Positions 12,320-27,531 of a stretch of DNA of 64,000 nt are shown here, one piece after another. The position numbers were made by a program, and so were the translations under genes. The stretch comes from a virus. Its lineage: Duplodnaviria; Heunggongvirae; Uroviricota; Caudoviricetes; Ackermannviridae. The stretch lies in IMG/VR virus record IMGVR_UViG_2974514734_000001, positions 32,683 through 96,682 of that record; one strand, given 5' to 3'. The notes below the pieces were generated by a model. The model did not search any database and was not told the DNA's origin. It was given only the letters and a program-made list of their open reading frames with translations. Each line of letters begins with the position of its first letter. Position 1 is the first letter of the stretch.

Positions 12320-12320
12320 T

Positions 12321-13034: not shown

Positions 13035-13703
13035 ATGCAAGAGATCACTCTCTCCGAACGCACTTTACAACTGCTGGCTAACTTTGAAACCATCTGCCCC
13101 TCTATCGTTCTGGCACCTGGTAAAAAGTTGCGCACTGTTAACGATTCCAGTACAGTTATCGCTATTGCCGACATCGACGAAGACTTCCCGTTCGAATTCC
13201 CGATTCTGGATCTGACCAAATTGCTGGCAATCCAGCGTCTGCCGAGTTTTAAAGGCGGTAAAATTGAAATGTCAGAAGACCACATTTTGCTGAAAGGTGA
13301 AAACTCCCAACTGCAATTCTGGCGTTCCGCTAAAGAACTGACTGTCGTTCCGGCGGACAGCATCGATCTTACGTCTGTAGAATTTGAAGCAACGGTCACT
13401 CCTGAAAAAATGAAAGAGCTGACTCGCGCCTGTTCTACTCTGGGTCACAAAACTGTACGTCTGGTTGCCAGCGGCGGTAAAACTCGTCTGGTGGGCACGA
13501 CCACTACTATCGACAATTCCAACGATTACACTGTTGAGTTGGGTGAAACAACTCTGGGTGATTTTGCTATGCCTGTTGATGTGGTCAACCTGAAAATGAT
13601 CGAAGGCAACTACGTGATCCGCGCCTGTGCCGAAATGCAACTGGTTAACTTCCAATCCGCAGACGGCACCATCAACTATTACGTCGGCATGCAGCTGGAT
13701 TAA
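13035..13703 (+). CDS. 45: sliding clamp gp45
   Basis: 222 aa, GAGGA RBS; same length class and position as T4 gp45, followed by a terminator then gp44. Confidence 0.8.
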   Translation: MQEITLSERTLQLLANFETICPSIVLAPGKKLRTVNDSSTVIAIADIDEDFPFEFPILDLTKLLAIQRLPSFKGGKIEMSEDHILLKGENSQLQFWRSAKELTVVPADSIDLTSVEFEATVTPEKMKELTRACSTLGHKTVRLVASGGKTRLVGTTTTIDNSNDYTVELGETTLGDFAMPVDVVNLKMIEGNYVIRACAEMQLVNFQSADGTINYYVGMQLD

Positions 13704-13728
13704 TCAATAACGATTCGGCGCTTTATTA

Positions 13729-13755
13729 TCGGTGGCGGGGGTTTCCCCGCCCTTT
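13729..13755 (+). terminator. terminator GGCGGGGGtttCCCCGCC plus CTTTG
   Basis: GC-rich hairpin between gp45 and gp44, as in T4. Confidence 0.55.
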
Positions 13756-13781
13756 GAAACGTTTTATCTAAAGAGGCTGCA

Positions 13782-14771
13782 ATGTCTAACATCACTATCG
13801 TCACAGATCAATACGCGTGGGAAAACAAATATCGCCCTGACAATCTGGATGAGATCGTCCTCCCTTCAGACGTCCGTGCAAAAATCCATGGCTATGTTAC
13901 ATCAGGCAATGGAAACATCCCCTCAATGCTGTTCTATTCCCCTCAGCCTGGTACGGGCAAGACTACTTCTGCTCTGGCTGTGTGTAACGAAATCGGTTGC
14001 ATCAAACCGTTGATGATCAATGCGTCACTGGATAACAGCATTGATGTCATCCGTGACCGTGTTATTCAATACGCAACTGGCGTCAGTGTTTTCGGTGGCC
14101 GCAAAGTCGTTATCCTCGATGAAGTTGAGCGACTTTCCATGGCGGCGCAGGAATCCCTGAAAGGCATCGTAGAGAAAGTCTCCAAAAACTGCTCCTTCAT
14201 CCTGACGACTAATGCGAAACAGCGCGTTAACGAACCTCTGCGTTCCCGCTGTCGTGAAATTGATTTTATCTGGTCCGAAAAGGAAGCAGATGAAGTTAAA
14301 CTCCAATTCATGCGTCGTTGCGCAACTATCCTGACAGAGGAAGGTATTCCGTATGAAGCTGGTGTAATTGCTTCCATTGTGAAAGCATATTTCCCAGATA
14401 ATCGCAAAATTATGGGAACTCTTCAGGATAATGCCACCACGTTTGGTAAAATCGATGAACGCGCTCTGGCACAGGTTAAAGCAGGGGAATTCCAAGCGCT
14501 GGTTGATTTCCTGAAAACCAATGATTGGGCTGGGATGAAGCAGTGGGTGACCGACAACCAAAACTACATCACTGAAGATTTTTATTCCCGTTTCTTCCAT
14601 TTCTGCGTTCCCCAGAACAAGGAAAAGACTCCTTTGATTCAAAAAGAGTCAATCCCTGATCTGGTATGTGTCTGTGGTCAGTCTCAGATTGAACATCGTT
14701 CCGTCGGCGACGTCTGGTTACACGGCGTTTACTTCTTGACAAACGTCATGCTAAACATCAAATGGAAGTAA
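13782..14771 (+). CDS. 44: clamp loader large subunit gp44 (AAA+)
   Basis: Walker A PQPGTGKTT, DEVE Walker B, SRC motif (LRSRC). Confidence 0.9.
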   Translation: MSNITIVTDQYAWENKYRPDNLDEIVLPSDVRAKIHGYVTSGNGNIPSMLFYSPQPGTGKTTSALAVCNEIGCIKPLMINASLDNSIDVIRDRVIQYATGVSVFGGRKVVILDEVERLSMAAQESLKGIVEKVSKNCSFILTTNAKQRVNEPLRSRCREIDFIWSEKEADEVKLQFMRRCATILTEEGIPYEAGVIASIVKAYFPDNRKIMGTLQDNATTFGKIDERALAQVKAGEFQALVDFLKTNDWAGMKQWVTDNQNYITEDFYSRFFHFCVPQNKEKTPLIQKESIPDLVCVCGQSQIEHRSVGDVWLHGVYFLTNVMLNIKWK

Positions 14772-14775
14772 TATT

Positions 14776-15198
14776 ATGGCCGCTCCGTCACTGTTCGATT
14801 ACCTCGGTGCGTTGAATAGCACCAAAGAGAATCTGTTGATGACCGAAGACCCCGAAATCAGAAAGGCATTTGATCCTTTCATGACTCGGCGCGGCCTTGC
14901 TCAGAGTAAAGACACGCTTGTGGTTGCTGAACAAATGAACCGCTTCCATGCCATTACTCCTTGGATGCAATGGAACCTGGCGTTTCATAGCATTCCGGCA
15001 AAACGTCGCTATGACAAGTGGTCTAAGAAGGGAGCTATGGATCCTGATGTAAAATTGATTTCTGAGTATTATTACATCAGTCCTGAAAAGGCTTCAGAAT
15101 ATGTTCGATTCCTGCCGAAAGAAGTCCTGGCTGAAATCAAGGCGAAGGTCGAACGTTCCAACAGCAACGAAAAAGCCAAACCGCGCAAGGCTAAGTAA
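14776..15198 (+). CDS. 62: clamp loader small subunit gp62
   Basis: AKRRYDKWSKKG resembles T4 gp62 PRGKRYGKWAKL; immediately after gp44. Confidence 0.65.
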   Translation: MAAPSLFDYLGALNSTKENLLMTEDPEIRKAFDPFMTRRGLAQSKDTLVVAEQMNRFHAITPWMQWNLAFHSIPAKRRYDKWSKKGAMDPDVKLISEYYYISPEKASEYVRFLPKEVLAEIKAKVERSNSNEKAKPRKAK

Positions 15199-15227
15199 TT
15201 CAAATAATTGTTAAAGGGGTATGAGTC

Positions 15228-15692
15228 ATGGCGCGTAATACGCTGGACATCTTAAAACTTTCAGCTGTCAACGATGAGGCCAGCATTGTTGACTGTATGG
15301 TTGAAGTTCAATTGAACCAAGACAAACCAGGGATTTTCCTGGGTATCAAGGAAACGCTGAGTCGGATAGGGGTTAACACTCGTCAAGAGCCTAACACCTT
15401 GTATCAAACGTGCCATATTCTGCATAAATTTGGCAGATATCACATCGTGCATTTCAAGCATTTGTTCATGCTAGATGGGCACTACAACGGCTTTACGCGT
15501 GAAGATGTCCTGCGTATGAATCGGATTATACGGCTTCTGGAGCAATGGAATATGGTTAAGATCTTGCATCCGGAACAAATAACCGAAGTGGCTGACATGT
15601 CTCGGATCAAAGTTGTAAAACATGACCAAGTTTCTGAGTGGAAATTGGTTCCAAAATACACTATTCGCCCAAGTCGGGCAAAAAGCGAATAA
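15228..15692 (+). CDS. regA: translational repressor RegA
   Basis: …KETLSRIGVN…LYQTCHILHKFGRYHIVHFKHLFMLDG…EWKLVPKYTI matches T4 RegA almost motif for motif. Confidence 0.9.
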   Translation: MARNTLDILKLSAVNDEASIVDCMVEVQLNQDKPGIFLGIKETLSRIGVNTRQEPNTLYQTCHILHKFGRYHIVHFKHLFMLDGHYNGFTREDVLRMNRIIRLLEQWNMVKILHPEQITEVADMSRIKVVKHDQVSEWKLVPKYTIRPSRAKSE

Positions 15693-15708
15693 CTGGAGTC
15701 GCTATATT

Positions 15709-16578
15709 ATGACAACTACATTTAATAAAAACGTGAGATTGAATTTGGCTTTTGGTAATGCGGCTGGAGATATTACAGCCCCTGACTTCGGTAAAATTCG
15801 CAATCAGGCCAAACTGGTTCTGGAAGAGACCCGCGAATTACTGGAAGCGGCTTATTTCGACCACGAGGTGAAAATTGAGTTCACTGCATCTCCGCGAGTC
15901 CTGAAAGAACCTGCTGTTGTCGACATCAAAGACATTATGCGCCAGATTTTGGACGCTCAGGGCGACATCACAACAGTCAATGACGGCGTGGCACACATTG
16001 CTGGTTTTAATGGTGATGAATGTTTACAACGTGTGTTTGCCTCTAACATGAGCAAATTTATTCGCTCAGAAGATGAAGTCGGTCCGGCACTGGAATATTA
16101 TTATTCACGCGGTTTCCCAGATGGCCAGTTACGCGTTGAAGGTGAATTCCCTCAGGCATGCATCAAAGTGAATGAGACTGTGATGTGGAATGGCAAAGAA
16201 TATCCGAAAGGAAAATTCCTGAAAAACATGGCTGTGTTCAAAGAGCCTGATTTCTCTGATATGCTGACGAATACCCCTTCCCGTCAGATCAATGACATCG
16301 TTGTCAGCATGGCAATTGAAGAAGGACAGGTATTTGTTGATGATCTGAACGGCGTGGCGTTGGTATCTCCAAAAACGTTGGAAGTAATTCTTTCTATGGC
16401 AGTTGAAAAATCTTCTCGACCAGTAGATGTTAACGGCCAAATTGAAAGTTATGTGCCAGCGTATATCATTAACGATACCAATATGCCTAAGCTGTGTGGG
16501 GTGTGGGGTGCTAATGTTCGCGTATACGCGTGCGCACCTGTTCAAAACACTGTGACACACCTCTCTCGCTTCGATTAA
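15709..16578 (+). CDS. MazG-like (all-alpha NTP pyrophosphatase, T4 gp56 dCTPase-like) N-terminal domain protein with unknown C-terminal domain
   Basis: LVLEETRELLEAAYF … VFASNMSKF resemble the MazG EExxE… and …N..K motifs and T4 gp56 ADETRELYTSLGG; GGAG RBS; sits where T4 has gene 43. Confidence 0.4.
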   Translation: MTTTFNKNVRLNLAFGNAAGDITAPDFGKIRNQAKLVLEETRELLEAAYFDHEVKIEFTASPRVLKEPAVVDIKDIMRQILDAQGDITTVNDGVAHIAGFNGDECLQRVFASNMSKFIRSEDEVGPALEYYYSRGFPDGQLRVEGEFPQACIKVNETVMWNGKEYPKGKFLKNMAVFKEPDFSDMLTNTPSRQINDIVVSMAIEEGQVFVDDLNGVALVSPKTLEVILSMAVEKSSRPVDVNGQIESYVPAYIINDTNMPKLCGVWGANVRVYACAPVQNTVTHLSRFD

Positions 16579-16597
16579 TATAATCCGTTATTCACTA

Positions 16598-16630
16598 AAC
16601 AACAGAGGCTATAATGGCCTCTGTTTTTGT
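16598..16630 (+). terminator. terminator AACAGAGGCtataatgGCCTCTGTT plus TTTGT
   Basis: 9-bp stem, T-run. Confidence 0.6.
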
Positions 16631-16647
16631 ATTCTAGAGAGGATACC

Positions 16648-17850
16648 ATGAAAGATAAACCGTGTGACATTCCTTATTGCGGTGTTCGGGAAGCTAAAAT
16701 TAAATCTGCCAAACCCGTCCTGGACCAGCAGATTGTAAAGTGGTCTTACGAATGGATGCACGATCGTTACCAGATCCACGTCAAGAAGGACGTCCAGCGT
16801 CTTCCTGCTCCTTGGACGAATAATCCTATACTACGGCAGGTTAAGTTCTGTAACGTCCGGAGAGAGCACGACAGGCAGTCCCTCAACCTGATCAACAACA
16901 TCGTCAAGAACGACGCTCTGAGCATGGCCGACAAAATGTTCAACTGTGTTCTGTTCCGCATGTTCAATCTCTGGGATCCGATCAAGGTGGCGCTCGAGGG
17001 CGCTATGACGATTTCAGACTTTGCTAAAATCAACCTGGACGAGACCCGCGCCCGTCTTCAGAAGTTCGAGGCCGACGGTGGTAAGGTATTCACCAATGCC
17101 TTCAACACGGGCGGTCTGAAGCAATGCCTGGCTTTTCCTGAGCTGGTTGTCAACCACAAGGAGCAGCGCTTCGGTGGCATGATGGTTAAGGTACACCGTG
17201 TTGGCCAGGGTGTCGTGGATGAATTGGATTACAAGGTCGCCAAGAAGCTGGTTGAAGAGAATCCTGGGGAGTACACGATTGAGGGTTGGGAGCCGTACAT
17301 GCCAATGCGAGTCATCCGCTCTTTGAAGGCATTCGTCAACAAACACCCTCATTACTTTGATCGCCTCAGGGAATTTAGCCGTCCCGACTCTGTTTACCAG
17401 GCGATGTATGACGACATTGAGGGGCTTGGGCCATTCCTGGCATATCAGATCTGGGTGGACTTCACATACATCCCTGAGTATCCATTCAGTGAGAATCATT
17501 TCACTATCGCTGGTCCAGGTTGCCGTGCGGGTATTGACCTGATGTTCCTGGATAAGGACGGCATGACTCATGAAGAATGCATATTCTGGCTACGGGATAA
17601 TCAGGACGCAGTTTATGGTCCTCTTGGGTATAACAGGGAAGAATTTTGGTCTGCGGAAGAGCCTTGGGATCACCATTTAAATATAATGGCAGGAGAAAAT
17701 ATGTTTTGTGAACTTCAGAAATACACCCGTTGTGTAGAGGCTTTACAGCAAGGTAAAAAACCGCGCGGGAAGGTTGGATACGATGGGGAAGGACAACCTA
17801 AAGCGACGACATCTGGTTCTAAAAACCTACTAAATTTATTTAAAAAGTAA
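16648..17850 (+). CDS. hypothetical protein (401 aa)
   Basis: GAGAGGA RBS; no motif I can assign. Confidence 0.5.
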   Translation: MKDKPCDIPYCGVREAKIKSAKPVLDQQIVKWSYEWMHDRYQIHVKKDVQRLPAPWTNNPILRQVKFCNVRREHDRQSLNLINNIVKNDALSMADKMFNCVLFRMFNLWDPIKVALEGAMTISDFAKINLDETRARLQKFEADGGKVFTNAFNTGGLKQCLAFPELVVNHKEQRFGGMMVKVHRVGQGVVDELDYKVAKKLVEENPGEYTIEGWEPYMPMRVIRSLKAFVNKHPHYFDRLREFSRPDSVYQAMYDDIEGLGPFLAYQIWVDFTYIPEYPFSENHFTIAGPGCRAGIDLMFLDKDGMTHEECIFWLRDNQDAVYGPLGYNREEFWSAEEPWDHHLNIMAGENMFCELQKYTRCVEALQQGKKPRGKVGYDGEGQPKATTSGSKNLLNLFKK

Positions 17851-17909
17851 CTTACTTTGTGAGTTAAGAAAGTATATTATAACAGGAACTTTCATTTGGA
17901 GTTCCTGTT

Positions 17910-19061
17910 ATGTTTTACGAATTATTGATTTCTAAAGGCGGTAAACCGCATTTTATCAAGAAGTATTTGAGGATGATTCAATCTTTCAAATATCCTGATG
18001 GTGACTACACCGAATTACACCACATCCTTCCCAAGAGCATGTTCCCTGAATATTCCAAAGACAAGATCAATTTGGCAAGACTTACTGGCAGGCAACATTA
18101 TCTTGCCCATGTGTGTTTGGCCTTGGCTTTCCCGAATTCTGATATGGTATATGCTGTTCTTTTGATGAGCCGTGGGGGTAGGTATACACCAACGGGCATA
18201 AAATTTAATTCTCACCTTTACGAAAAGTTAAGGAAAGAATTTGGACAAAGAATATCCAAACTCACAAAGGGTGTCTCTAAATGCGTCGGGGCAAACAACC
18301 CAATGTATGGGAGAAGAGGAAAGAATAATCCCCAATATGGGTATAAGAGAACTCCAGAGCAAGTCAAGAAAATTACCAAAGGATTGATGAAAATCCATGA
18401 AAGGATGGCTTCTGATCCTGAATATAAAAGGCGGGTTTTAGAGAAACGCCGCGCCAACATGGATTTAGAACAATTTTCTGAACGTGCCAGGAAAGCTAAA
18501 CTTGGGGAACTCAATCCCAATTATGGGAAGGACTTAACCAACTCATTCACACCAGAGCAACGCGCCAAACAGAAAGAAAACGCTCAGAAAGGCATGTTGG
18601 CTAAGATGCCTTGGGAGAAGGGTAAATGGAACCCCGACAATGACGTATATTGGGAGAAAGCTGATCAATTCCTTGAAGCCCTGAATACGATGAAACGTTC
18701 AGAAGCCCTCTTGTTCGTGTATGGAACAAAAGATCTGAAGGCGTTTAATGCCACCAGTGGGATAATCGAACGTTTCAATAAAGGCTGGGAACCATTAAAA
18801 TGCGTAAAATGGTTAAAAAGATACAAGGGTGAAAAAATGAGCTGGAAATTGTTCAAACTGTGTAAAGCGACTGATGAGTTTCTTCTGAAAGCCCGTATGG
18901 AAGGACGTCTCGTGTACACTCCTTACCCAGGCACTACTCGGTTTTGCAACACGCTGAGGAAACAGAAATCAGTTTCTGGGCCGAGACGTTTGATGAAGCA
19001 GGGGATGCTGGCATACAACTCCGGTGATACTCGGCCTTGTGACGGCGGTAAGATCGTCTGA
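17910..19061 (+). CDS. HNH homing endonuclease (Mob-like) with NUMOD-type repeats
   Basis: ELHHILPKSM HNH motif; repeated NPMYGRRGKNNPQYG modules. Confidence 0.8.
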   Translation: MFYELLISKGGKPHFIKKYLRMIQSFKYPDGDYTELHHILPKSMFPEYSKDKINLARLTGRQHYLAHVCLALAFPNSDMVYAVLLMSRGGRYTPTGIKFNSHLYEKLRKEFGQRISKLTKGVSKCVGANNPMYGRRGKNNPQYGYKRTPEQVKKITKGLMKIHERMASDPEYKRRVLEKRRANMDLEQFSERARKAKLGELNPNYGKDLTNSFTPEQRAKQKENAQKGMLAKMPWEKGKWNPDNDVYWEKADQFLEALNTMKRSEALLFVYGTKDLKAFNATSGIIERFNKGWEPLKCVKWLKRYKGEKMSWKLFKLCKATDEFLLKARMEGRLVYTPYPGTTRFCNTLRKQKSVSGPRRLMKQGMLAYNSGDTRPCDGGKIV

Positions 19062-19070
19062 ATAAAGATT

Positions 19071-19111
19071 CCCTTTACTTCATTCTTCAATAACTCTTTT
19101 CAACGTATTAT
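19071..19111 (+). promoter_or_regulatory. degenerate PeSL-like early promoter region (CTTTAC…TTCAATAA…TATTAT), followed by a 5'UTR hairpin GCGCCC…GGGGCGC
   Basis: Shares TTTACTTC…TTCAATAAC with the other cassettes, but the -35/-10 spacing is disrupted by about 10 extra nt. Confidence 0.3.
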
Positions 19112-19180
19112 TGACCTCACTTAAACGAAGCGCCCTGGCAAACGGGGCGCACATTTGAACTGAAACAGGAAGACTATACC

Positions 19181-21202
19181 ATGGCAGAATTCAAACCCTT
19201 CGCAACGGCAGTTAATAACAACGTGCTGGCGATGTCCGCAACTGGTCTGTTCATGACCAATATCGATAAAGATGCTCTTTGGGATCTGTATCTGGCATCT
19301 TTCCCTGCTGGTACTAACCCGCTGTACCGCGAACGTACTGAACACGATTGCACCTGCTGTAAACAATTCATCCGTAACATCGGCGGTGTTGTCACCATCG
19401 ATTCAGAGCTGAACGTGATTTCCATCTGGGACAACATTGATCTGGGTAATGAATATGACGTGGTGGCTGCGGCTCTTTCCGCTTATGTCAAACAACACGC
19501 AATCGTCGATGTTTATTTTAACGATTCTGCCAAAGTCGGCCTGTCTCACAATCACGAATCTGGTGAAGATGGCAAAATCCGTACTTACAATCATTTCCAT
19601 ACCCAATTACTTGGTAGCTATGTTCTGCGTCCGGACGCAATCGCTTCGAAAAAAGGTGAAATCCGCCAGGCTATTGAATTGTTTGAACGCGGTCTGCGTG
19701 AAATTACTCTGGAATCAGCTGAAATCGTTCTGGAACTGATTGACCAGAATTCTCTGTATCGCGGCGCAGAACACAAAGCAGCAGTGAAGGGATTTGTTGA
19801 AACCAAAAAGGCATATGAACAAATCCCCGAATCAGCCCGTTCTCTGTGGACATGGCATACTGGATACCGTTCAAACAATCATGTTCCACACGGCATCCGT
19901 AACACAGTTATCGGCACTCTGCTGACAGATATCAGCGAAGGCGTGGAACTGGAAAAGGCTGTTAAGTCGTTTGAATCCAAAGTTGCTCCGGCGAACTACA
20001 AACGTCCGACCGCGCTGGTTTCAAAATCCATGATCGAAAACGCTCAGAAAGAAGTTATTGCTCTGGGTTTGGAAGACTCACTGGCGCGTCGTTATGCGGT
20101 TTATGATGATCTGACAATCAACAACGTTTTGTTCGCAGATCTGGCCGCTCAGAAAGCGATGGATCCGTTTGCACAGCTGGCCGCAGAAGTGAAAACTCCG
20201 ACTAAGTCCTTAGAAAAAGTTGAAGAGATCAGCGTTGATGATTTCCTGAGCAATGTTCTACCAAAAGCGCATTCAATGGAAGTGCTGGTAGAGAATTCTC
20301 ATACTAGCAACCTGATGTCCCTGGTTGCTCCGGCGAACCCAGATGCACCTAACCTGTTCAAGTGGAACAACGGTTTCTCCTGGTCTTACAACGGTGAAGT
20401 GGCCGATTCCATTAAAGAACGTGTAAAGGCTGCTGGCGGTAAAGTTGACGGGTATCTGCGCGTTTCCTTGGCGTGGCACAATAACGACGACCTCGATCTG
20501 CATATGTTCTTTAACAATATGGAGCACGTTTACTTCCGTGATCGTCGCTCTATGACAGGTGCCCATCTGGATATCGATATGAACGGTATGGATGGTATCG
20601 ATCCAAACCGCGCTCCGGTGGAAAATATCATCTTTACAGATGAAAGCAAGCTGCGCGATGGTGAATACCGTTTCGAAATCCACAACTACAATCAACGTGA
20701 AAAGATCGACGAAGGGTTTGAAGTCGAAGTAGAATACAAAGGCGCAACGCATCGTTTCAGCCATCCTGGCCTGAAAGATCAGGGGCGTATCACTGCAGTC
20801 ATCCTGACTGTTAAAGACAAACAAGTTGTTGGCATTAAGTCCGAACTGGCTAATGTTGATAAGTCTAAAGAAGTTTGGGGTATCAAGACTGCGACCTTCC
20901 AGAAAGTACAGCTGGTCCTGAATTCACCAAACCATTGGGATGGGGAGCAAACTGGTAACAAGCATGTGTTCTTCATTCTTGAAGGTTGTGCTAATCCTGA
21001 AGGTACTCGTGGTTTCTACAACGAATATCTGAAGCCAGAACTGGATAAACATCGTAAGGTTTTTGAAATGTTGGGTAGTAAAATGAAAGTCCAGCCGAAT
21101 GAAAACCAACTGTCCGGTCTGGGATTCTCGACGACGCAACGCAACCACGTGTTCGTAAAAGTGTCCGGCGCGTTTAACCGTACTGTAAAAGTCATTTTCT
21201 AA
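19181..21202 (+). CDS. hypothetical large protein (673 aa)
   Basis: AGGAAG RBS plus conserved TATACCATGGC context; no Walker motifs or known signatures recognised. Confidence 0.5.
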   Translation: MAEFKPFATAVNNNVLAMSATGLFMTNIDKDALWDLYLASFPAGTNPLYRERTEHDCTCCKQFIRNIGGVVTIDSELNVISIWDNIDLGNEYDVVAAALSAYVKQHAIVDVYFNDSAKVGLSHNHESGEDGKIRTYNHFHTQLLGSYVLRPDAIASKKGEIRQAIELFERGLREITLESAEIVLELIDQNSLYRGAEHKAAVKGFVETKKAYEQIPESARSLWTWHTGYRSNNHVPHGIRNTVIGTLLTDISEGVELEKAVKSFESKVAPANYKRPTALVSKSMIENAQKEVIALGLEDSLARRYAVYDDLTINNVLFADLAAQKAMDPFAQLAAEVKTPTKSLEKVEEISVDDFLSNVLPKAHSMEVLVENSHTSNLMSLVAPANPDAPNLFKWNNGFSWSYNGEVADSIKERVKAAGGKVDGYLRVSLAWHNNDDLDLHMFFNNMEHVYFRDRRSMTGAHLDIDMNGMDGIDPNRAPVENIIFTDESKLRDGEYRFEIHNYNQREKIDEGFEVEVEYKGATHRFSHPGLKDQGRITAVILTVKDKQVVGIKSELANVDKSKEVWGIKTATFQKVQLVLNSPNHWDGEQTGNKHVFFILEGCANPEGTRGFYNEYLKPELDKHRKVFEMLGSKMKVQPNENQLSGLGFSTTQRNHVFVKVSGAFNRTVKVIF

Positions 21203-21239
21203 TTGATTTTACCACAAATTCGTAATAAGGAACAATGAA

Positions 21240-21611
21240 ATGTTTGATCATGCAACCCGTTTAAAACTGCGTTTCAACTCTAACAAAGGTCTGCTGTCTG
21301 TTGAGCAGGTTTGGGATCTGAACCTGAATGCCCTAAACGAACTGGCGAAAGACCTCAGCCGTCAGGTGAAGGAAGCCGCCAGCGATGAAGAAGATTTCAT
21401 CGGCGTGAAAAGCGCAGTCGACTCTCAGTTACAACTGCGTTTCGATATCGTGAAAGCGATCATCGGTGTTAAACTGAAAGAACGTGACGAAAGCGCAACC
21501 GCCGCCGAACGTAAAGCGAATAACCAGGCGATCATGGAACTGATCCAGCGTAAGAAACAGCAGGAACTGGAAGGCCTCTCTGTTGAAGAACTGGAAAAAC
21601 TCCTGAAATAA
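21240..21611 (+). CDS. hypothetical coiled-coil protein (123 aa)
   Basis: ORF, AAGGAA RBS. Confidence 0.45.
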   Translation: MFDHATRLKLRFNSNKGLLSVEQVWDLNLNALNELAKDLSRQVKEAASDEEDFIGVKSAVDSQLQLRFDIVKAIIGVKLKERDESATAAERKANNQAIMELIQRKKQQELEGLSVEELEKLLK

Positions 21612-21632
21612 TCTGTCGGCTCCGGCCTGAGC

Positions 21633-21660
21633 AACCCCGCTATGTGCGGGGTTTCTTTTG
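21633..21660 (+). terminator. terminator CAACCCCGCtatgtGCGGGGTTTCTTTT (near-copy of 4364-4390)
   Basis: GC stem plus T-run. Confidence 0.7.
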
Positions 21661-21670
21661 GAGAAATATT

Positions 21671-21907
21671 ATGAAACAAATTACTAAGACAGTACAAATC
21701 ACCCAATATCAAACGGATGACGGCAGAGTGTTCGATACTCTTGGTCAGGCCGAACATTATGAGAAGATGAAGTCCGGTATTCGCAAGGTATGCTCTTCTT
21801 GTGATGGCAAAGGTCGCGACTCTCCGTCGGGCGACGGGCGTGATATGACGACTTGTCATTATTGTGGTGGTAAAGGCTGGGTAGAAAAGAAAGAGATATG
21901 GGGTTAA
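21671..21907 (+). CDS. small DnaJ CR-type zinc-finger protein (two CxxCxGxG motifs)
   Basis: CSSCDGKG and CHYCGGKG. Confidence 0.5.
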   Translation: MKQITKTVQITQYQTDDGRVFDTLGQAEHYEKMKSGIRKVCSSCDGKGRDSPSGDGRDMTTCHYCGGKGWVEKKEIWG

Positions 21908-22317
21908 TGAAACCTGTCATCTGTGATTACTGCGGTCAACCTGCCCAATACGTCGGGGGCGATGCTGTATACCCCCACCGCCCCGACCTCCGCAATCTGA
22001 AGTTCTGGGTATGCTCGCCATGCGACGCTCGTGTGGGTTGCCATACCCATGGGGATGGTAGACAACCTCTGGGAAGGATGGCGAATGCCGCTCTCCGTGC
22101 TGCTAAGCAGGAAGCTCATAGGTCGTTTGACCCTATCTGGAAAAGTGGGCAGAGGAGCAGGAGTGATGCTTACAGCTGGCTGGCTCATAATCTGGGGATC
22201 AAGAAGCGCGATTGCCATATCGGCTTGTTCGATATCGATATGTGCCGTAAAGTAGTCGCTGTGTGTAATCAACTAAAGGCACAAGATAATGTCAAAGGAA
22301 ATACAAGAAGCATTTGA
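21907..22317 (+). CDS. zinc-finger protein (DUF3268-like: CDYCG…IYPHRPDL…FWVCSPCDARVGCH)
   Basis: Start overlaps the previous stop (TAATGA). Confidence 0.45.
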   Translation: MKPVICDYCGQPAQYVGGDAVYPHRPDLRNLKFWVCSPCDARVGCHTHGDGRQPLGRMANAALRAAKQEAHRSFDPIWKSGQRSRSDAYSWLAHNLGIKKRDCHIGLFDIDMCRKVVAVCNQLKAQDNVKGNTRSI

Positions 22318-22540
22318 AAAATTATCTCAGGTAATGACCGACTGCAACCGCCGGAATTATTGTGATGAAGCGTATACCAAATTGAAAACTGCTGTTGAAA
22401 CCGAGCTGGCAGGTCTTTCCGTTTTCAAAGATATTCAGACCGAAGTGCTATATCTGTCGGATGAAGATTTAAGGCGTTGTCCCCGCAAGATTTACCAATT
22501 ACTGGATCGTTTGGTGAAAGTGGGGGTGAATAATGGGTAA
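22289..22540 (+). CDS. hypothetical protein (83 aa)
   Basis: ORF overlapping its neighbours by a few codons. Confidence 0.4.
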   Translation: MSKEIQEAFEKLSQVMTDCNRRNYCDEAYTKLKTAVETELAGLSVFKDIQTEVLYLSDEDLRRCPRKIYQLLDRLVKVGVNNG

Positions 22541-23258
22541 TCGTGAAGGGATTAAACTCACACCAGAACTTCTGAAGTCACATATTGCTGAAGTGATTTA
22601 TGAAGACCGTGAAGTTGGTGGTCACCGCGTCATTACATGCCATTTCAAGATGGACAATGGCTTTGTCGTCTGGGGTAAGAATAGTTCCACATCGGTAGAC
22701 CCTGCCAACTTCGATGAAGAAATAGGCAAGCAGCTGGCCTATGAAAAGACCCTTTCTCAACTGTGGGAACTGGAAGCATATCGCGCGATAGTAGAAAAGC
22801 AGATCATCGATGTGTCCGCCAAAGATGCTAAGATCAACATTGATGAATATGTGTCAGAAAGGGGATCGATACATGAGATGGGTGGTTCTGAATTCCTTGA
22901 GGGTAAAGGACAATCCGTCGTGTTTCGTCATCCCAAGGATCCAAGTCGGGGATTTCGAGTTGAATTTGTTCGCACCGATAATGAACGTTATGACGAACGG
23001 CGTAATGGTGAAGCAAGATCTTTGGTGGAAGCGTATCTTCGCTCGTTTATGACTTCTGAAGATCTAAATTCTGAACTTGTCTTGCGTTTGGCGAAAACGT
23101 GTAATGCTGCTTCAGGGGATTATCCGTGGTGTGACCTGTCTGAAGACAAACGCCAAGCAGCTTGTGATCGTGTTAAGAAATTCTTGTTAGATCCGAAAGC
23201 CCAACCTGGTGATTCCGTGGGGGCGCTGTATAGAGCCATCGTGGTGTCATACTTGTAA
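22533..23258 (+). CDS. hypothetical protein with possible Gp49/66-like N-terminal domain
   Basis: …CHFKMDNGFVVWGKNSS…PANFDEEIGKQLAYEKTLSQLWELEAY; from memory, low confidence. Confidence 0.35.
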   Translation: MGNREGIKLTPELLKSHIAEVIYEDREVGGHRVITCHFKMDNGFVVWGKNSSTSVDPANFDEEIGKQLAYEKTLSQLWELEAYRAIVEKQIIDVSAKDAKINIDEYVSERGSIHEMGGSEFLEGKGQSVVFRHPKDPSRGFRVEFVRTDNERYDERRNGEARSLVEAYLRSFMTSEDLNSELVLRLAKTCNAASGDYPWCDLSEDKRQAACDRVKKFLLDPKAQPGDSVGALYRAIVVSYL

Positions 23259-23525
23259 TTCTTCAAAAGTCTTTCAAAATCAATAACGTCCGGCAAATTG
23301 CTGGGCGTTTCAATTAATAAGCCAAGGTATAATGGCCCAATTGTAAAGCGAGGGAAATTACTTTGCCCAAACCATTTTTGCGTTCAGGAGTTGACTCTCT
23401 TGACTCACAGTTTAAACCCAGCGAAGTTTTAATCCAACAGATTGAAACTAATCGCGAATTCATAGAACACATGCTGGCAAAGCCGGAAGGTGAAGCCGCT
23501 CAAACCACCAAAGAAGGTAATAACG

Positions 23526-25742
23526 ATGATTGAATCATTAACATTTAAAAATGCGGTAGCAACTGTCGCGCCGTCTAACCATGTAATCGTTGTGGACATC
23601 TCCGGTTCCATGTATCGTTCACTTCCAGAAGTCCGTAAGCATCTGAAGGAAAATCTCCCGTCTCTGGTTAAACCAGAAGATACCGTCAGCATTCTTTACT
23701 TTTCATCCCGTGGTGATTTCGGTACGGTATTCGCTGGCCGTCAGATCAATAGCGCGACCGATCTCAGTGAAATCAATAAACTGATTGACCGCTTCCTGCA
23801 ACCGTCAGGTTGTACGGGATTTGTAGAACCTCTGAAGTTGGCTGCTGAAACCGCGATGAGCCTGAACAAACCTGGTTATGTCAATAACCTGGCGTTCATG
23901 ACCGACGGCTATGACAACTGCTGGCGCTCTAATGAAATCCTGGATGCCGCTGAAGTACTGCCCAAAGCGTTTGATAACATTACCTTCATCGAATACGGTT
24001 GGTACTGTAACCGCGAACTGCTGTCTCTGATGTCCGAGCGTTCTGGCGCGACCCACGTGTTTGCCGAAGGTCAGACTGAATATCAGACCGAATTGGAAAA
24101 TGTACTGAAATCATCTACGCCGAAAGTGGTTGTTGATGTCCCCCTGGTTTACACTCATGCCATCTACGTTGAAAACGGCGTGGCAACTGTGCTAGCCGTA
24201 CAACCAGATGAAGAACACCCGATTGGCCACGTCAGCATCCCTGAAAGCGTTTCTCAGCTGTGGGTTGTAAACCCCGACATGATCGACCAGCTGGATAATC
24301 TGGCAGACACCCAGGCGGCATACGTGCTGGCATTCTATGGCGTGTACACCATGGACGCCGATCTGGTCTGGGCCGCGCTGAAGAAGACGGGTGACGTCCG
24401 CTTCATCAAACAATACAGCAACTGTTTCACCAAGCAGGACTATTCCAACATCAAAGTCGATCTGACCCAGGCTATCGTGGATGAAACTCTGCGCGGCGTA
24501 GATGGCATCGATTACAATATGGTTCCAGCTGAAGATGCAACGACCATTGTTGATGTCTTGACCTACCTGGCCGAAGCCGATGTCTCTGTTGTCACTAAGC
24601 ATCCACTGTTCTCTTACAACAGTATTGGGCGCGGTACTGTACAGAAAGTTGACGACACCGAAGACAAATTGGCCGAAGAGATTGCGAATGCGACTTCTAA
24701 AGAAGAGCGTAAAGCCCTGGCGCTCAAACTGGCCGAGCACGAAGATTGGACCCCCGAATTCAATCCAGCAGATGATAAAGGGATTGTCCCGATTAGCAAT
24801 CTGGTCTATAATTCAGAACGTCCTAACATTAGTGTACAAACAGTTCAACACGGAACGGTTGTTGTACCCGAGTTCGTACAGAAGAAATATGAACTTCCTG
24901 AAGAGTTGGGAACCTGGCGTTATCGCAATTACACCATTGTCAAGGATGGTATCATCAACCTGAAAACAATGCCTATTACTGCGGATTCTCCGATTGTTCG
25001 GGCTAAGGTGGCACAGGATTTGACTGCCATGGGTGTTCATGTGTTTGGTGGACCGGAAGTCTTCATTGTAAATCTGGAAAGTGTCCCAATGGTTAACCGC
25101 GCTATGACAAAGAATATCAGTGCTGCTGAATTCTTTGCAGACAATGTGCGACGTGAAGCATTGAAGGCGAAACAAAAAGTTCTGAAATTCTATCGTGATG
25201 AGCTGGTTGGTAAAGGCAATGCTGCTGGTTTGGCTTCAAAATATGGCAAAGAAGCGGCTGATTTCCTGTCAGCAAACGGCATTCGCGACTATGGATTTTC
25301 ACCGAAGACTTCTTCTGTAGAATCAACCGATGTCTATATGAGTCGTGAATTGAATGTGAAAATCAAAGGCGCATCTTCACTGCCGAGCATCGCGTCTGTT
25401 ATCAAAAAACAGACGGACGGTAAAAAACTGAATGTCGCTGATCAGCTGATCGCTAATGCCCTGGCTGAATACAATGCATTCGTTAAATCACCGATGATCA
25501 CCAGTGTACCGGAAGAGACTCAGAAAAAGCTGATCGAAAGTTGGATTGGTGATGCAGCAAAAGCAGCTATCAACGAAGTTCGCGCTCTGAACAAAACGCT
25601 GTCCAAGGTAGTTTATGGGATTGTTGCAGGCCATGGTTGGTTTACCGACCTGGATTTGGAAGAATCCACTATGGATGTGGAAGTTGATGGGGTGAAATAC
25701 ACCGTCACTGCCGAACTGGCCGAAAAAGAAGTCAAAATCTAA
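23526..25742 (+). CDS. von Willebrand factor A (vWA) domain protein, 738 aa from the ATG start (track ORF 23490-25742 is 750 aa from an upstream GTG)
   Basis: MIDAS motif VVDISGSMY (DxSxS) plus downstream T/D residues; ATG at 23526 with GAAGG RBS (the track uses an upstream GTG at 23490). Confidence 0.65.
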   Translation: MIESLTFKNAVATVAPSNHVIVVDISGSMYRSLPEVRKHLKENLPSLVKPEDTVSILYFSSRGDFGTVFAGRQINSATDLSEINKLIDRFLQPSGCTGFVEPLKLAAETAMSLNKPGYVNNLAFMTDGYDNCWRSNEILDAAEVLPKAFDNITFIEYGWYCNRELLSLMSERSGATHVFAEGQTEYQTELENVLKSSTPKVVVDVPLVYTHAIYVENGVATVLAVQPDEEHPIGHVSIPESVSQLWVVNPDMIDQLDNLADTQAAYVLAFYGVYTMDADLVWAALKKTGDVRFIKQYSNCFTKQDYSNIKVDLTQAIVDETLRGVDGIDYNMVPAEDATTIVDVLTYLAEADVSVVTKHPLFSYNSIGRGTVQKVDDTEDKLAEEIANATSKEERKALALKLAEHEDWTPEFNPADDKGIVPISNLVYNSERPNISVQTVQHGTVVVPEFVQKKYELPEELGTWRYRNYTIVKDGIINLKTMPITADSPIVRAKVAQDLTAMGVHVFGGPEVFIVNLESVPMVNRAMTKNISAAEFFADNVRREALKAKQKVLKFYRDELVGKGNAAGLASKYGKEAADFLSANGIRDYGFSPKTSSVESTDVYMSRELNVKIKGASSLPSIASVIKKQTDGKKLNVADQLIANALAEYNAFVKSPMITSVPEETQKKLIESWIGDAAKAAINEVRALNKTLSKVVYGIVAGHGWFTDLDLEESTMDVEVDGVKYTVTAELAEKEVKI

Positions 25743-25750
25743 ATTCATCT

Positions 25751-25775
25751 GGCGGGGAAACCCGCCTTCATTTTG
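25751..25775 (+). terminator. terminator GGCGGGGaaaCCCGCC plus TTCATTTT
   Basis: GC stem, T-rich tail. Confidence 0.5.
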
Positions 25776-25779
25776 AGAT

Positions 25780-26097
25780 ATGCTTATGTCAAACAAACCA
25801 ACTTATGTTGAAGTAATGCGTGTTCTGGCTCAGTACGCTTGTGACAACCTGAACATGGAAACTTGGCGCGACGGTGACCATAAAGAAAAGTTCGATAATA
25901 TCGACGACAACATCGATGCGTTGGCTCCTCTTCGGGCCAAGAGCGATCTCGGCGGTGATGATCTTGACATGATTGAACTCATCATGGAAGTTGAAGAACA
26001 ATATGATGTTGAAATCAGTGATGAATGGGTAGGCAAACATGGTGATGATCCCACGCTCGGCGAATTAGCTGAATTGGTAGTTGCCCTCCGCAAATAG
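25780..26097 (+). CDS. acyl carrier protein-like acidic protein lacking the phosphopantetheine-attachment serine
   Basis: LGGDDLDMIELIMEVEEQYDVEISDE corresponds to ACP [26 protein letters not shown], with the DSL Ser replaced by Asp. Confidence 0.5.
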   Translation: MLMSNKPTYVEVMRVLAQYACDNLNMETWRDGDHKEKFDNIDDNIDALAPLRAKSDLGGDDLDMIELIMEVEEQYDVEISDEWVGKHGDDPTLGELAELVVALRK

Positions 26098-26103
26098 CAG
26101 AAG

Positions 26104-26170
26104 TCCCCAACGGTTTGTTGGGGATTTTTACTTTTAGGGGGTTTACTTGAATAAACATTTGCCGTATTAT
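26104..26170 (+). promoter_or_regulatory. PeSL-like cassette: hairpin TCCCCAAC…GTTGGGGA, then early promoter GTTTAC (26141-26146), 18-bp spacer, TATTAT (26165-26170), containing TTCAATAAC
   Basis: Read directly. Confidence 0.5.
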
Positions 26171-26223
26171 TCAATAACTGGCTAACGTGGGGTTGGTCAG
26201 ACATTGAATAGGTTGGTTATAAC

Positions 26224-26463
26224 ATGTCAAATAAAAAAGTAGAAACGACAGTAGAAATTGATCGTAATTGGGGATTACTCCGCGCTAAAGGTTTTCGTCG
26301 TGTTTATATGACCAAGGAAGTTTATGTTCAGCGTCGCGACGTTATTATCAGCAAGAAAGGTAAAGAGTGGGTTGCTGAAGAAGTTGACATTGAAACGGGT
26401 GTCGTCGGTAAGGTTAAAGCCAAGGCCGCGATCCTCTTCGCTCTTCTGAAGCATATCAATTAA
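26224..26463 (+). CDS. hypothetical protein (79 aa)
   Basis: ORF downstream of the cassette. Confidence 0.45.
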   Translation: MSNKKVETTVEIDRNWGLLRAKGFRRVYMTKEVYVQRRDVIISKKGKEWVAEEVDIETGVVGKVKAKAAILFALLKHIN

Positions 26464-26478
26464 TTCTATAAATTATGG

Positions 26479-26504
26479 CGGGGTATGATTACCCCGCTTA
26501 TTTG
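26479..26504 (+). terminator. hairpin GCGGGGTAtgatTACCCCGC plus TTATTTG
   Basis: 8-bp stem. Confidence 0.45.
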
Positions 26505-26522
26505 AAATGTAGGAACTATACC

Positions 26523-27035
26523 ATGACCGATCAACAAATTCAAGATTTATTTTACCTCGTCCATGATAAGTCCCATATCATGCAGCCCGGTACTGTTTCT
26601 CCGGAAGTGGCAGACCTCATAAACGCGCTTAGAACTCGCCAGACCGTGACCCTTTGGCGTGGGTTGTGCAAGGAAGATGTTGTCTTCCTTGATTCTATGT
26701 TCAACGCCCGCGATGCATTCAGAACCTGGTCGTGTGCCCTGAGTATGACCGAATCAAAATCTTATGCCAAGAAATTCTCCCATGGCTACAAAACGAAGGC
26801 GTTGCTGCGCGTGTTATGCCATCGCACTAAAACGACCGAGCGTCCGTTGGGGCTGAACGTCGTGGAAGCCTTGGTCGCCAACATTAACACCAAAGATGAA
26901 GGGGAAGTTGATATGCTGGCGCTGGCGCGGATAGAGCAGGAATGGATATTCAATCGTCCTCGCGTCGCGCCCGTATCCCACATCGTCAACAAAGACGGTT
27001 ATTCTGTTTATACCGTTAACCTCATCACATTATAG
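26523..27035 (+). CDS. putative R-S-E-type ADP-ribosyltransferase (Mod/Alt-like)
   Basis: Ordered motifs TLWRG (Arg), ALSMTES (S-x-S/T), RIEQEWIF (Q/E-x-E); conserved AGGAACTATACCATGAC start context; motif-only inference. Confidence 0.3.
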   Translation: MTDQQIQDLFYLVHDKSHIMQPGTVSPEVADLINALRTRQTVTLWRGLCKEDVVFLDSMFNARDAFRTWSCALSMTESKSYAKKFSHGYKTKALLRVLCHRTKTTERPLGLNVVEALVANINTKDEGEVDMLALARIEQEWIFNRPRVAPVSHIVNKDGYSVYTVNLITL

Positions 27036-27045
27036 GAGCCTTGCC

Positions 27046-27330: not shown

Positions 27331-27331
27331 A

Positions 27332-27499: not shown

Positions 27500-27531
27500 C
27501 TAAGGGATAACCCTATATCCCGAGGTGTGTC

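Follow-up and report, generated by a model that had tools for sequence, protein, structure and literature searches.

The genes downstream of regA in Salmonella phage barely: a probable family backbone with three variable cassettes

Gene order downstream of regA

In phage T4, the cluster order is 45-44-62-regA-43. In a Kuttervirus genome, the 11 kb following regA had been described in the initial annotation as a hyperplastic accessory island at the position of gene 43, which raises the question of whether this stretch replaced the DNA polymerase gene and whether it forms a module of its own. The window, which is the whole 64,000-nucleotide stretch analyzed (window coordinate = record coordinate - 32682), was 100% identical to Salmonella phage barely (Kuttervirus, Ackermannviridae). 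The previously listed ORFs are real, all lying on the plus strand where they had been placed and matching the reference annotation NC_049505.1, gp047-gp059. Their lengths had been assigned mechanically, and orthologues favored 400 aa (ATG 16648), 738 aa (ATG 23526), and 170 aa (ATG 26523). The genes are as follows.

13035..15692, + strand, sliding clamp (gp45), clamp loader (gp44, gp62), and regA, flanking T4-like cluster (NC_049505.1 annotation)
15709..16578, + strand, MazG-like NTP pyrophosphohydrolase, 289 aa (phrog_2144, E = 1e-135; phrog_671, E = 1e-18)
16648..17850, + strand, aGPT-Pplase clade 1/HMUDK_hel protein (Pplase1), 400 aa (PF18723, E = 3e-80, 270 bits versus cut-off 25)
17910..19061, + strand, HNH + NUMOD3 homing endonuclease, 383 aa (phrog_655, E = 4e-65; phrog_12434; NUMOD3)
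19181..21202, + strand, p673, 673 aa, TerD-like beta-sandwich in the C-terminal half, first gene of a two-gene cassette
21240..21611, + strand, p123, 123 aa, highly charged C-terminal half, constant downstream partner of p673
21671..21907, + strand, Zn78, 78 aa, two DnaJ-type CxxCxGxG zinc fingers (weak Pfam DnaJ_CXXCXGXG match and sequence)
21907..22317, + strand, DUF3268 zinc-finger protein, 136 aa (PF11672, E = 6e-38)
22289..22540, + strand, p83, small protein (phrog_9847)
22533..23258, + strand, PF13876 (N4 gp49/Sf6 gp66 family) protein, 241 aa (PF13876, E = 1e-12)
23526..25742, + strand, vWA protein, 738 aa, MIDAS-bearing vWA domain at the N terminus and a beta-sandwich, C-terminal ~450 aa unassigned
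25786..26097, + strand, ACP-like protein, 103 aa (PF00550, 30.1 bits versus cut-off 20.8)
26224..26463, + strand, p79, small conserved protein (phrog_804)
26523..27035, + strand, R-S-E type ADP-ribosyltransferase (ART), 170 aa (phrog_832, E = 2e-8)

The clamp, clamp-loader, and regA genes of barely are arranged as in T4 on a single strand (regA, 15228-15692, Pfam Translat_reg, E = 4e-35) and showed 98-100% aa identity to those of ViI and Guerrero. In contrast to T4, regA is followed by the MazG-like gene, the first of fourteen other genes, and gene 43 is gp188 on the opposite, minus strand (record 146896-149892), ~98 kb from the block.

The same post-regA gene order is annotated in Guerrero, ViI, PP35, 0507-KN2-1, and phiEa2809, and is common to Kuttervirus, Limestonevirus, Taipeivirus, Nezavisimistyvirus, and Serratia phiMAM1-type phages. 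In ViI (Vi01), Vi01_131c to Vi01_119c correspond to these genes and are arranged identically after 45-44-62-regA, with 84-93% nucleotide identity over the colinear parts, and the block was also present in CBA120, Guerrero, and other Kuttervirus genomes. At the megablast level, 286 phage records matched positions 13000-28000, 108 of them covering at least 80%. Synteny thus revealed the same block in annotated relatives rather than a unique one, and the proposal of an accessory island at the gene 43 position is not supported.

Gene-by-gene presence was determined by tblastn against the five relatives Guerrero, ViI, PP35, 0507-KN2-1, and phiEa2809. The MazG-like, Pplase1, and vWA genes were found in all five, as were those for DUF3268 and PF13876, of which PP35 has only a remnant and a truncated copy, respectively. 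The ACP-like gene, p123, and p79 (82-100% identity) were found in four, and p673 was full-length in four and a remnant in PP35. The Kuttervirus-only p83 was limited to Guerrero and ViI. The organization of Ackermannviridae genes was reviewed as scattered compared to Tevenviruses (PMC11721090), and 114 core genes in mostly conserved order were reported (PMC10892097).

The 11-kb stretch is therefore very probably a conserved Ackermannviridae backbone, a co-directional run of genes for non-structural proteins that follows the clamp, clamp-loader, and regA cluster, and neither an inserted island nor one functional module. It did not replace the DNA polymerase gene, and just three small cassettes vary. 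The T4 order would never have existed at the post-regA site in this family, hence the position of gene 43 elsewhere, and the block may be described as a mosaic of seven parts. Identity with barely, conservation of the block, indel boundaries, domain assignments, and motifs were observed directly.

Variable cassettes

ViI is colinear with about 78% of the region and lacks only 17787-19057 (1271 bp), 21685-21906 (222 bp), and 26528-27494 (967 bp), i.e., 2460 of 11327 bp by blastn indel mapping. Unlike ViI, barely carries the HNH endonuclease, Zn78, and an ART/p94/p55 cassette, in place of which ViI has denV, Vi01_118c, and an extra 79-aa gene copy.

The HNH/NUMOD3 homing endonuclease, correctly called from the start, sits on the first indel and is absent from Guerrero as well as ViI (blastn); PP35 has a different endonuclease in this slot and 0507-KN2-1 a remnant. 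This free-standing enzyme is probably a selfish element in an intergenic slot. Zn78 is encoded on the second indel. At ≥95% identity it occurs in 36 Kuttervirus records, and PBECO4/121Q jumbo phages have a version with ~51% identity. The Zn78 stop overlaps the DUF3268 start by one base, as expected of the coupled zinc-finger pair that had been proposed (21671-21907 and 21907-22317). DUF3268 itself is encoded in ViI, Guerrero, 0507-KN2-1, and phiEa2809. The small zinc-finger proteins and the PF13876 protein, for which the earlier gp49-like call was borne out, may form one part of the mosaic.

The ART is the first gene of the third, replaceable cassette, whose slot ViI fills with denV and Vi01_118c and other family members with denV. 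Residues R46-G47, S74, and E138-x-E140 are invariant, and profile matches were obtained to Vis (4xzj, E = 9e-6) and ExoT (E = 4.5e-4), in agreement with the ART-like call. A direct Pfam match was absent, and 7 of 41 distant relatives matched Pfam ART families. Among 5.8 billion proteins, 8 clusters make up this narrow family. T4 Alt/ModA/ModB, Vis, ExoT, and ExoS have the R, S, and ExE residues in common with the barely ART, and ModA/ModB are of similar size; this arginine-type (R-S-ExE) enzyme may modify host proteins like T4 Alt/ModA/ModB. In relatives, one slot of the block carries prs and NAMPT genes, for which possible evasion of NAD+-depleting defense was suggested (PMC11721090).

DNA precursor and DNA modification genes

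The predicted catalytic part of the MazG-like protein is its N-terminal ~190 aa with an invariant acidic cluster (E39, E40, E43, E46, D82, D86, and D92), and the phiEa2809 homologue lacks the C-terminal extension of ~100 aa. Searches of Pfam, NCBIfam, and PDB sequences gave no match, and the MazG-like label of this putative pyrophosphohydrolase comes from PHROG annotation, upheld by both families, and from the acidic motif. The following gene had been recorded as a 401-aa unknown and can be assigned by its PF18723 (HMUDK_hel) match and as the syntenic orthologue of ViI gp160 (Vi01_130c, note orf00160; 78% aa identity). Pplase1 is also the name annotated for the orthologue in phage Guerrero. 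ViI gp160, listed as aGPT-Pplase1 in Table 3 of Lee 2018, belonged to the set of five proteins from whose combined lysates the thymidine hypermodification 5-NeOmdU was reconstituted (Lee 2018). The other genes of the hypermodification pathway, HMUDK_HMUD1, HMUD2, ADDT, PLP enzyme, TS-like enzyme, and dUTPase_2, are located elsewhere in the same genome.

The two genes may act as a DNA-precursor and DNA-modification pair, in which the pyrophosphohydrolase would trim canonical dNTPs (dTTP or dUTP) and let 5-hmdUTP be incorporated. Pplase1, an HhH glycosylase-fold protein that in phage SP10 is fused to the 5-hmdU DNA kinase, would have 5-hmdU DNA as its substrate and act alongside kinases from other parts of the genome en route to 5-NeOmdU, a modification that protects DNA from restriction enzymes.

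The p673-p123 pair, vWA, and ACP-like proteins

Homologues of p123 with 31-42% identity follow p673 homologues directly in seven phages outside the family and in two other family genera. The pairing was observed in 10 phages of 8 lineages with a partner of ~125 aa, which in a Vibrio phage is annotated as a coil containing protein. The C-terminal half of p673 holds the invariant residues D437, D439, D464, D466, E481, and N482 and a beta-strand-rich stretch. Compared to the TerD and DUF2135 (YfaP) calcium-binding beta-sandwich proteins, p673 adds ~400 N-terminal residues without a relative of known structure, is always paired with p123, and lacks a sequence-level TerD match (Pfam TerD, none of 51 family members).

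The PP-binding score of the ACP-like protein is above the cut-off, in line with the earlier ACP-like call. Asp replaces the phosphopantetheine-attachment Ser, with DLGGD-D/E-LD aligning to DLGADSLD of E. coli in 4 of 4 orthologues; phosphopantetheine attachment at the canonical site is thus predicted to be impossible. The ACP-like and vWA proteins may serve as a protein-protein adaptor or decoy pair rather than in biosynthesis. The view that the genes are mostly unassignable holds for many of them apart from Pplase1, since p673, p123, p83, the PF13876 protein, the vWA C terminus, and p79 leave more than half of the coding length without assigned function. Some of the parts may be functionally coupled.

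Regulatory signals and alternative explanations

Promoter-early stem-loop (PeSL) cassettes mark the hyperplastic regions of T4-type phages, and terminators with such cassettes had been said to bracket the genes. The terminators were partly confirmed, with 25 terminator-like hairpins observed versus 15.2 ± 3.7 expected. One more is located in the 26098-26223 spacer, and the clear examples at plus-strand gene ends are the following.

16601..16625, + strand, terminator-like hairpin separating the MazG-like gene from Pplase1, 11-bp stem with a T run after it
21633..21653, + strand, terminator-like hairpin after p123
25751..25766, + strand, terminator-like hairpin after the vWA gene

The promoters were not, as sigma-70-like matches in the block occurred at chance (28 versus 27.4 expected) and no repeated PeSL-type cassette was found in it. 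Transcript or protein timing data were not found in the literature for any Kuttervirus, and therefore both an early/middle block and the independence of its sub-parts are what we infer, as are expression timing and all biochemical activities in the block. The block resembles T4-type hyperplastic regions in its short unassigned genes parted by hairpins and in the few slots varying among close relatives, and differs from them in being mostly family core, in ORFs without repeated flanking promoter/stem-loop, and in sigma-70-like sites that are not enriched.

It is improbable that a lineage-specific hyperplastic island bounded by terminator/PeSL cassettes replaced gene 43 and holds an undescribed anti-defense or host-takeover module. 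The separation of regA from gene 43, hairpins at several gene ends, the three indel slots relative to ViI, the prs and NAMPT genes filling one slot in relatives, and the presence of an ART would fit such an island. Against it stand the order conserved across five genera, the colinearity with ViI, the chance-level promoters, the presence of gene 43 elsewhere in a family known for its scattered layout, a GC content (0.43-0.49) no different from the rest of the window, and the lack of any PADLOC match. Of the supposed module, a DNA-hypermodification (anti-restriction) gene and an ADP-ribosyltransferase are indeed present; these functions are of described kinds and no undescribed module is formed. 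Even less credible is one extended hypermodification operon in which p673, vWA, and the ACP-like protein help make or install the aminoethoxy group. The block starts with a nucleotide pyrophosphohydrolase and Pplase1, all genes are co-directional, and an ACP fold might in theory hold an intermediate; however, 5-NeOmdU was reconstituted in 2021 with purified 5-hmdU DNA kinase, gp247, and gp226 (PMC8989533), the carrier Ser is missing, and hairpins divide the block. Moreover, Limestonevirus lost p673 and p123 although the family reportedly keeps the modification genes (PMC11721090), and p673 and vWA are distributed in lineages such as Vequintavirinae, phiCbK, and Slopekvirus.

By analogy with TerD and TerF/TerY-type vWA proteins, p673 and vWA could also represent a shortened Ter-type system carried by phages and serving superinfection exclusion or stress resistance, with prs and NAMPT of relatives as counterparts of Ter-associated phosphoribosyltransferases. 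The invariant Asp/Glu/Asn residues of p673, the MIDAS vWA protein 2.3 kb downstream, and Ter components reported in phages (PMC7824862) agree with this idea, and MoxR and vWA/metallopeptidase genes that lie no more than ~4 kb from p673 in the unrelated phages AD45-P1 and PB119 hint at a p673-vWA link. It is nevertheless unlikely, given the missing Pfam TerD matches and the absence of TerB, TerC, and TelA from the block. Outside the family, CR3, phiCbK, and BC01 have p673 but not this vWA, KP27 has the vWA protein but not p673, and the constant partner of p673 is p123. Within the conserved backbone, p673, with its TerD-like Ca-binding-type domain, and p123 would rather be a mobile two-gene cassette, probably dispensable because Limestonevirus lost both genes together.

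Gene order and distribution of the region downstream of regA

The region 15709-27035 downstream of regA is known Kuttervirus backbone with three small variable cassettes, and it has already been sequenced and annotated. In a megablast comparison of window positions 13000-28000 with 50,697 phage records, Salmonella phage barely (MT074477.1/NC_049505.1; Kuttervirus) was a 100% identical full-length match, and the region corresponds to gp047 to gp059 of its record (NC_049505.1 coordinate minus 32682 gives the window coordinate). Altogether 286 phage records matched, 108 of them with at least 80% coverage, and the host genera of the matching phages include Salmonella, Klebsiella, Escherichia, Dickeya, Serratia, Shigella, and Erwinia. 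The six-frame ORF list gave uninterrupted plus-strand ORFs from 13020 to beyond 28000, the same as in the deposited annotation of phage barely. The ORFs named in the initial annotation are thus real; their mechanical lengths were replaced, since orthologue alignments supported the annotated starts and proteins of 400, 738, and 170 aa. Its domain calls were upheld for HNH with NUMOD3, the CxxCxGxG/DUF3268 zinc-finger pair, PF13876, vWA, PP-binding, and the ADP-ribosyltransferase (ART)-like protein. The main features are as follows.

Features of the region downstream of regA (window coordinates)
15228-15692, plus strand: regA (Pfam Translat_reg, E 4e-35)
16601-16625, at a plus-strand gene end: terminator-like hairpin, clear example
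16648-17850, plus strand: 400-aa protein of aGPT-Pplase clade 1 (Pplase1, gp048)
19181-21202, plus strand: 673-aa protein (p673)
21240-21611, plus strand: p123
21633-21653, at a plus-strand gene end: terminator-like hairpin, clear example
21671-21907, plus strand: 78-aa protein with DnaJ-type zinc fingers (Zn78)
25751-25766, at a plus-strand gene end: terminator-like hairpin, clear example
25786-26097, plus strand: acyl carrier protein (ACP)-like protein
within the spacer 26098-26223: further terminator-like hairpin

In T4, the gene order is 45-44-62-regA-43. It was correctly noted at the outset that gene 43 does not follow regA here; the gene for the MazG-like 289-aa protein starts 16 bases on. 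Phage barely encodes its DNA polymerase as gp188, on the minus strand at 146896-149892 of the record, approximately 98 kb from regA. The order 45-44-62-regA-MazG-Pplase1 through to vWA, followed by conserved small genes, was present in all five annotated loci (Guerrero and ViI of Kuttervirus, PP35 of Limestonevirus, 0507-KN2-1 of Taipeivirus, and phiEa2809 of Nezavisimistyvirus), four of which also carry the ACP-like gene. This order was borne out gene by gene in a tblastn matrix, with backbone genes found in five genera. The same block in the same order in annotated relatives is the result that the initial annotation itself had named as speaking against its reading.

In a blastn comparison of phage barely with ViI, only 17787-19057, 21685-21906, and 26528-27494 were non-colinear, amounting to 2,460 of 11,327 bp, so that approximately 78% of the region is colinear with ViI. 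Neither feature of a genomic island, deviating composition or absence from relatives, was found: GC content was 0.43-0.49 both in the region and in the rest of the window, and the matching records are numerous. Nor did gene content differ widely between close relatives, as in a hyperplastic region, the comparison with ViI giving three indels. The proposed island in place of gene 43 is therefore refuted by the spread of the block, the shared gene order, the colinearity with ViI, the normal GC content, and the distant gp188. The T4 order is not ancestral here, and therefore nothing "replaced" gene 43; as a null model, it serves Ackermannviridae poorly. Ackermannviridae genes have been described as scattered, without the functional modules of Tevenviruses (PMC11721090), and Vi01-like phages were found in a 2024 comparison to share 114 core genes in a mostly conserved order (PMC10892097).

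The re-analysis narrows the truly variable portion of the region to 2.5 kb. The question as first posed matters little, one of the "unknown" proteins belonging to a published thymidine-hypermodification gene set; lasting interest attaches to the p673-p123 pair, the Ser-less ACP beside the vWA protein, and the role of Pplase1. NCBIfam named nothing in the region beyond vWA and ACP, and PADLOC gave no hit among 10 proteins. The "clamp loader subunit" label of gp042 (12321-12698, minus strand) looks unsupported, with no Pfam hit and a match only to a PHROG of unknown function.

Variable cassettes

Slot A, a 1,271-bp indel between phage barely and ViI, holds an HNH homing endonuclease matching phrog_655, phrog_12434, and NUMOD3. 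It combines HNH and NUMOD domains with presence or absence at a fixed intergenic site, as is characteristic of homing endonucleases: the slot is empty in ViI and Guerrero, contains a different endonuclease in PP35 (Limestonevirus), and a remnant in 0507-KN2-1 (Taipeivirus).

A trough of divergence from ViI (15709-21202) is centred on the HNH insertion. Amino acid identity was 98-99% for gp45, gp44, gp62, and RegA, 84% for the MazG-like protein, 78% for Pplase1, and 94% for p673, then 95-100% again; nucleotide identity was 84.5% over 15001-17786 versus 92.9% over 21907-26196. The trough looks like the outcome of homing-endonuclease co-conversion or of recombination with a divergent donor.

Slot B holds Zn78 (78 aa, two CxxCxGxG fingers); its stop codon overlaps the start of the DUF3268 zinc-finger gene. 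Zn78 occupies this slot in 36 Kuttervirus records, that of phage barely among them, and relatives at approximately 51% identity were found in PBECO4/121Q jumbo phages. In 0507-KN2-1, genes for ribose-phosphate pyrophosphokinase (prs) and NAMPT lie between the p123 and DUF3268 homologues (L008 19754-22257); both also occupy this position in the relatives AV101, D5lw, allotria, and SeKF_19, and a prs-like/NAMPT-like pair is absent from the window. These two enzymes have been suggested to evade NAD+-depleting defence (2024 review, PMC11721090).

Slot C holds the ART gene (gp059) with p94 and p55 in phage barely, and denV with Vi01_118c in ViI. The ART protein contains the R-S-E motifs in order, R46-G47, L73-S74, and E138-x-E140 being invariant in eight family members, and the motif residues are at least 90% conserved among 41 distant relatives. 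The family is narrow, with 8 clusters in 5.8 billion proteins, and was found in 76 phage records, 11 at >90% identity and all others at <60%. The protein alone had no Pfam hit, and a single-sequence PDB search returned nothing usable. Searching 1.84 billion representatives with a profile gave 45 relatives; of the 41 scanned, seven matched Pfam ADPrib_exo_Tox, DRAT, or ART, and the joint profile of the relatives matched the arginine ADP-ribosyltransferase Vis (4xzj; E 9.4e-6) and ExoT (E 4.5e-4). By its motifs and profile similarity, the 170-aa protein is a predicted R-S-E clade ADP-ribosyltransferase.

Pplase1 and the MazG-like protein

The protein initially considered an unassignable "401-aa unknown" now belongs to aGPT-Pplase clade 1, on the strength of PF18723 and synteny with ViI gp160. 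The full-length PF18723 (HMUDK_hel) match had an E value of 3e-80 and scored 269.9 bits, the cut-off being 25, aligning residues 28-366 to profile positions 2-279 of 281. The syntenic ViI orthologue is Vi01_130c, noted as orf00160, i.e., gp160, for which Table 3 of Lee et al. 2018 (PMC5889632) gives the name aG/PT-PPlase1; the Guerrero orthologue is annotated Pplase1. Elsewhere, phage barely encodes HMUDK_HMUD1, HMUD2, ADDT, a PLP enzyme, a TS-like enzyme, and dUTPase_2, and Pplase1 thus co-occurs in the genome with genes for 5-hmdU DNA kinase, a Pplase2/ADDT paralogue, and dUMP hydroxymethylase.

Mixed lysates of five ViI proteins including gp160 converted 5-hmdU DNA to 5-NeOmdU, and gp160 was assayed only within this five-lysate mix (PMC5889632). 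The 2021 reconstitution of the pathway used purified 5-hmdU DNA kinase, gp247 (serine:DNA transferase), and gp226 (PLP decarboxylase), and gp160 is absent from its assigned enzymes (PMC8989533). In a 2026 paper about a related modification, Pplase2 is named but clade 1 never appears. An identification of the 400-aa protein with the 5-hmdU DNA kinase was rejected: HMUDK_hel denotes a helical domain, and phage barely has its P-loop kinases in gp117 and gp184. Because kinase and clade-1 domain form a fusion in phage SP10 (PMC5889632), Pplase1 would act as an accessory or DNA-handling protein beside the kinase.

The MazG-like protein matched PHROG families named MazG-like or nucleotide pyrophosphohydrolase, and had no Pfam or NCBIfam match and no PDB sequence match in single-sequence or profile searches. 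Residues E39, E40, E43, and E46 and D82, D86, and D92 are invariant in five orthologues, an acidic cluster in the aligned sequences that may correspond to a metal-binding motif of the ExxE ... ExxD type. Because its gene adjoins Pplase1 in a phage that builds 5-hmdU into DNA, putative dTTP/dUTP pool editing is suggested for this protein.

The p673-p123 pair

More than 7,500 homologues of p673 were found, with identity falling to approximately 49-50% among the best 120, and the protein occurs in 559 phage records of many families. Its AF2 model was confident per domain (pLDDT 83.8, pTM 0.49). The N-terminal approximately 400 residues match nothing solved; single-sequence and profile searches of the PDB gave no usable match for p673, and a Foldseek comparison of the model with the PDB returned only spurious antibody Fab matches. 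A Pfam scan of 51 relatives yielded just three weak DUF2135 hits, and no mention of the precomputed family PF26675 was found in papers. The label "DNA-directed RNA polymerase" carried by p673 in some GenBank records was rejected, as there is no sequence or fold similarity.

A p123 homologue (31-42% identity) directly follows a p673 homologue in ten phages of eight lineages: Ackermannviridae, Vequintavirinae, phiCbK-like phages, Herelleviridae, Schitoviridae, a Vibrio jumbo phage, an Alteromonas podovirus, and Microcystis LMM01. In Limestonevirus, p123 is lost and p673 is cut to its first approximately 89 codons (88.8% identity); this fragment is the decayed remnant of a p673-p123 cassette. The two genes were lost together, and the pair is therefore dispensable and acts as a unit. 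Together, p673 (with a TerD-like calcium-binding-type domain) and p123 (with a highly charged C-terminal half) appear to form a self-contained, horizontally mobile cassette (19181-21611). That this cassette serves host takeover or counter-defence in an as yet undescribed way, perhaps linked to the vWA protein and the Ser-less ACP mimic, we consider rather unlikely. A Ter-like or counter-defence role of the pair is a guess.

Small hypothetical ORFs are annotated at the Limestonevirus p673 and DUF3268 fragments (PP35, L007 7240-7663; Dickeya phage XF4, 81604-81870). The ViI orthologue of p673 (L006 5481-7500) is split between two annotated ORFs, Vi01_129c and Vi01_128c, which suggests that the ViI record has a frameshift or a sequencing error. 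In two unrelated phages, Xanthomonas PB119 (L015 840-3067) and Alteromonas AD45-P1 (L012 2340-4966), the p673 homologue is preceded, at a distance of 2-4 kb, by genes for a MoxR-like ATPase and a vWA/metallopeptidase. In PB119 and Vibrio phage 2.275.O, the pair is flanked by tRNA arrays.

The vWA and ACP-like proteins

A complete and conserved MIDAS motif (DxSxS ... T ... D) lies in the vWA fold of the vWA protein, for which the structure model was confident (pLDDT 87.2); a single-sequence PDB search gave nothing usable. The protein was present in all Ackermannviridae tested and, at approximately 48% identity, in records of KP27 (Slopekvirus) and related phages of Klebsiella, Enterobacter, Cronobacter, and Citrobacter. 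No ACP-like neighbour of the vWA gene was detected in KP27.

The ACP-like protein shows the signature of the PP-binding four-helix fold, with 30.1 bits against PF00550 (cut-off 20.8), and scored 34.3 against TIGR00517, under the cut-off of 70.45. In alignment to E. coli ACP, the phosphopantetheine-attachment Ser is replaced in all four orthologues, by Asp in Kuttervirus and by Glu in PP35 and 0507-KN2-1. With Asp or Glu at the Ser of the DSL motif, the protein lacks a defining ACP feature, and it may be an ACP mimic or adaptor that is not phosphopantetheinylated at the canonical site.

Regulatory signals

Terminator-like hairpins numbered 25, compared with 15.2 ± 3.7 in shuffled sequences, and were unrelated to one another in sequence. 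The hairpins proposed at gene boundaries thus stood up, being commoner than in shuffles; the PeSL-like promoter cassettes proposed with them did not, as a repeat search found no multi-copy intergenic promoter/stem-loop cassette and sigma-70-like promoter matches were at chance level (28 versus 27.4 expected). The T4 late-promoter box TATAAATA was absent from the region and unenriched in the window. No Rfam matches were found in 12000-29000 and no tRNA genes in the window, and a literature search found no Kuttervirus or CBA120 transcriptomes.

The octamer TCAATAAC occurs in 11 copies, compared with 3.0 ± 1.7 expected. Five copies lie in plus-strand intergenic spacers (13704, 19087, 23280, 26171, and 43204), and two are flanked by a TTTACT box and a TATAAT-like box. 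As a promoter element the octamer was rejected, being enriched yet inconsistently spaced relative to -10-like boxes.

A 267-bp non-coding spacer without an Rfam match (23259-23525) precedes the vWA gene. The corresponding Guerrero spacer is approximately 352 bases longer and contains an extra small ORF, GUERRERO_123; the PP35 annotation also has a small ORF immediately before vWA. The genes for Pplase1, p673, and ART, each located after a hairpin, have no obvious Shine-Dalgarno sequence at their starts and share the start context (G/C)(A/T)ATACC-ATG (16639-16650, 19172-19183, and 26514-26525), which may represent a shared translation-initiation or RegA-type operator context.
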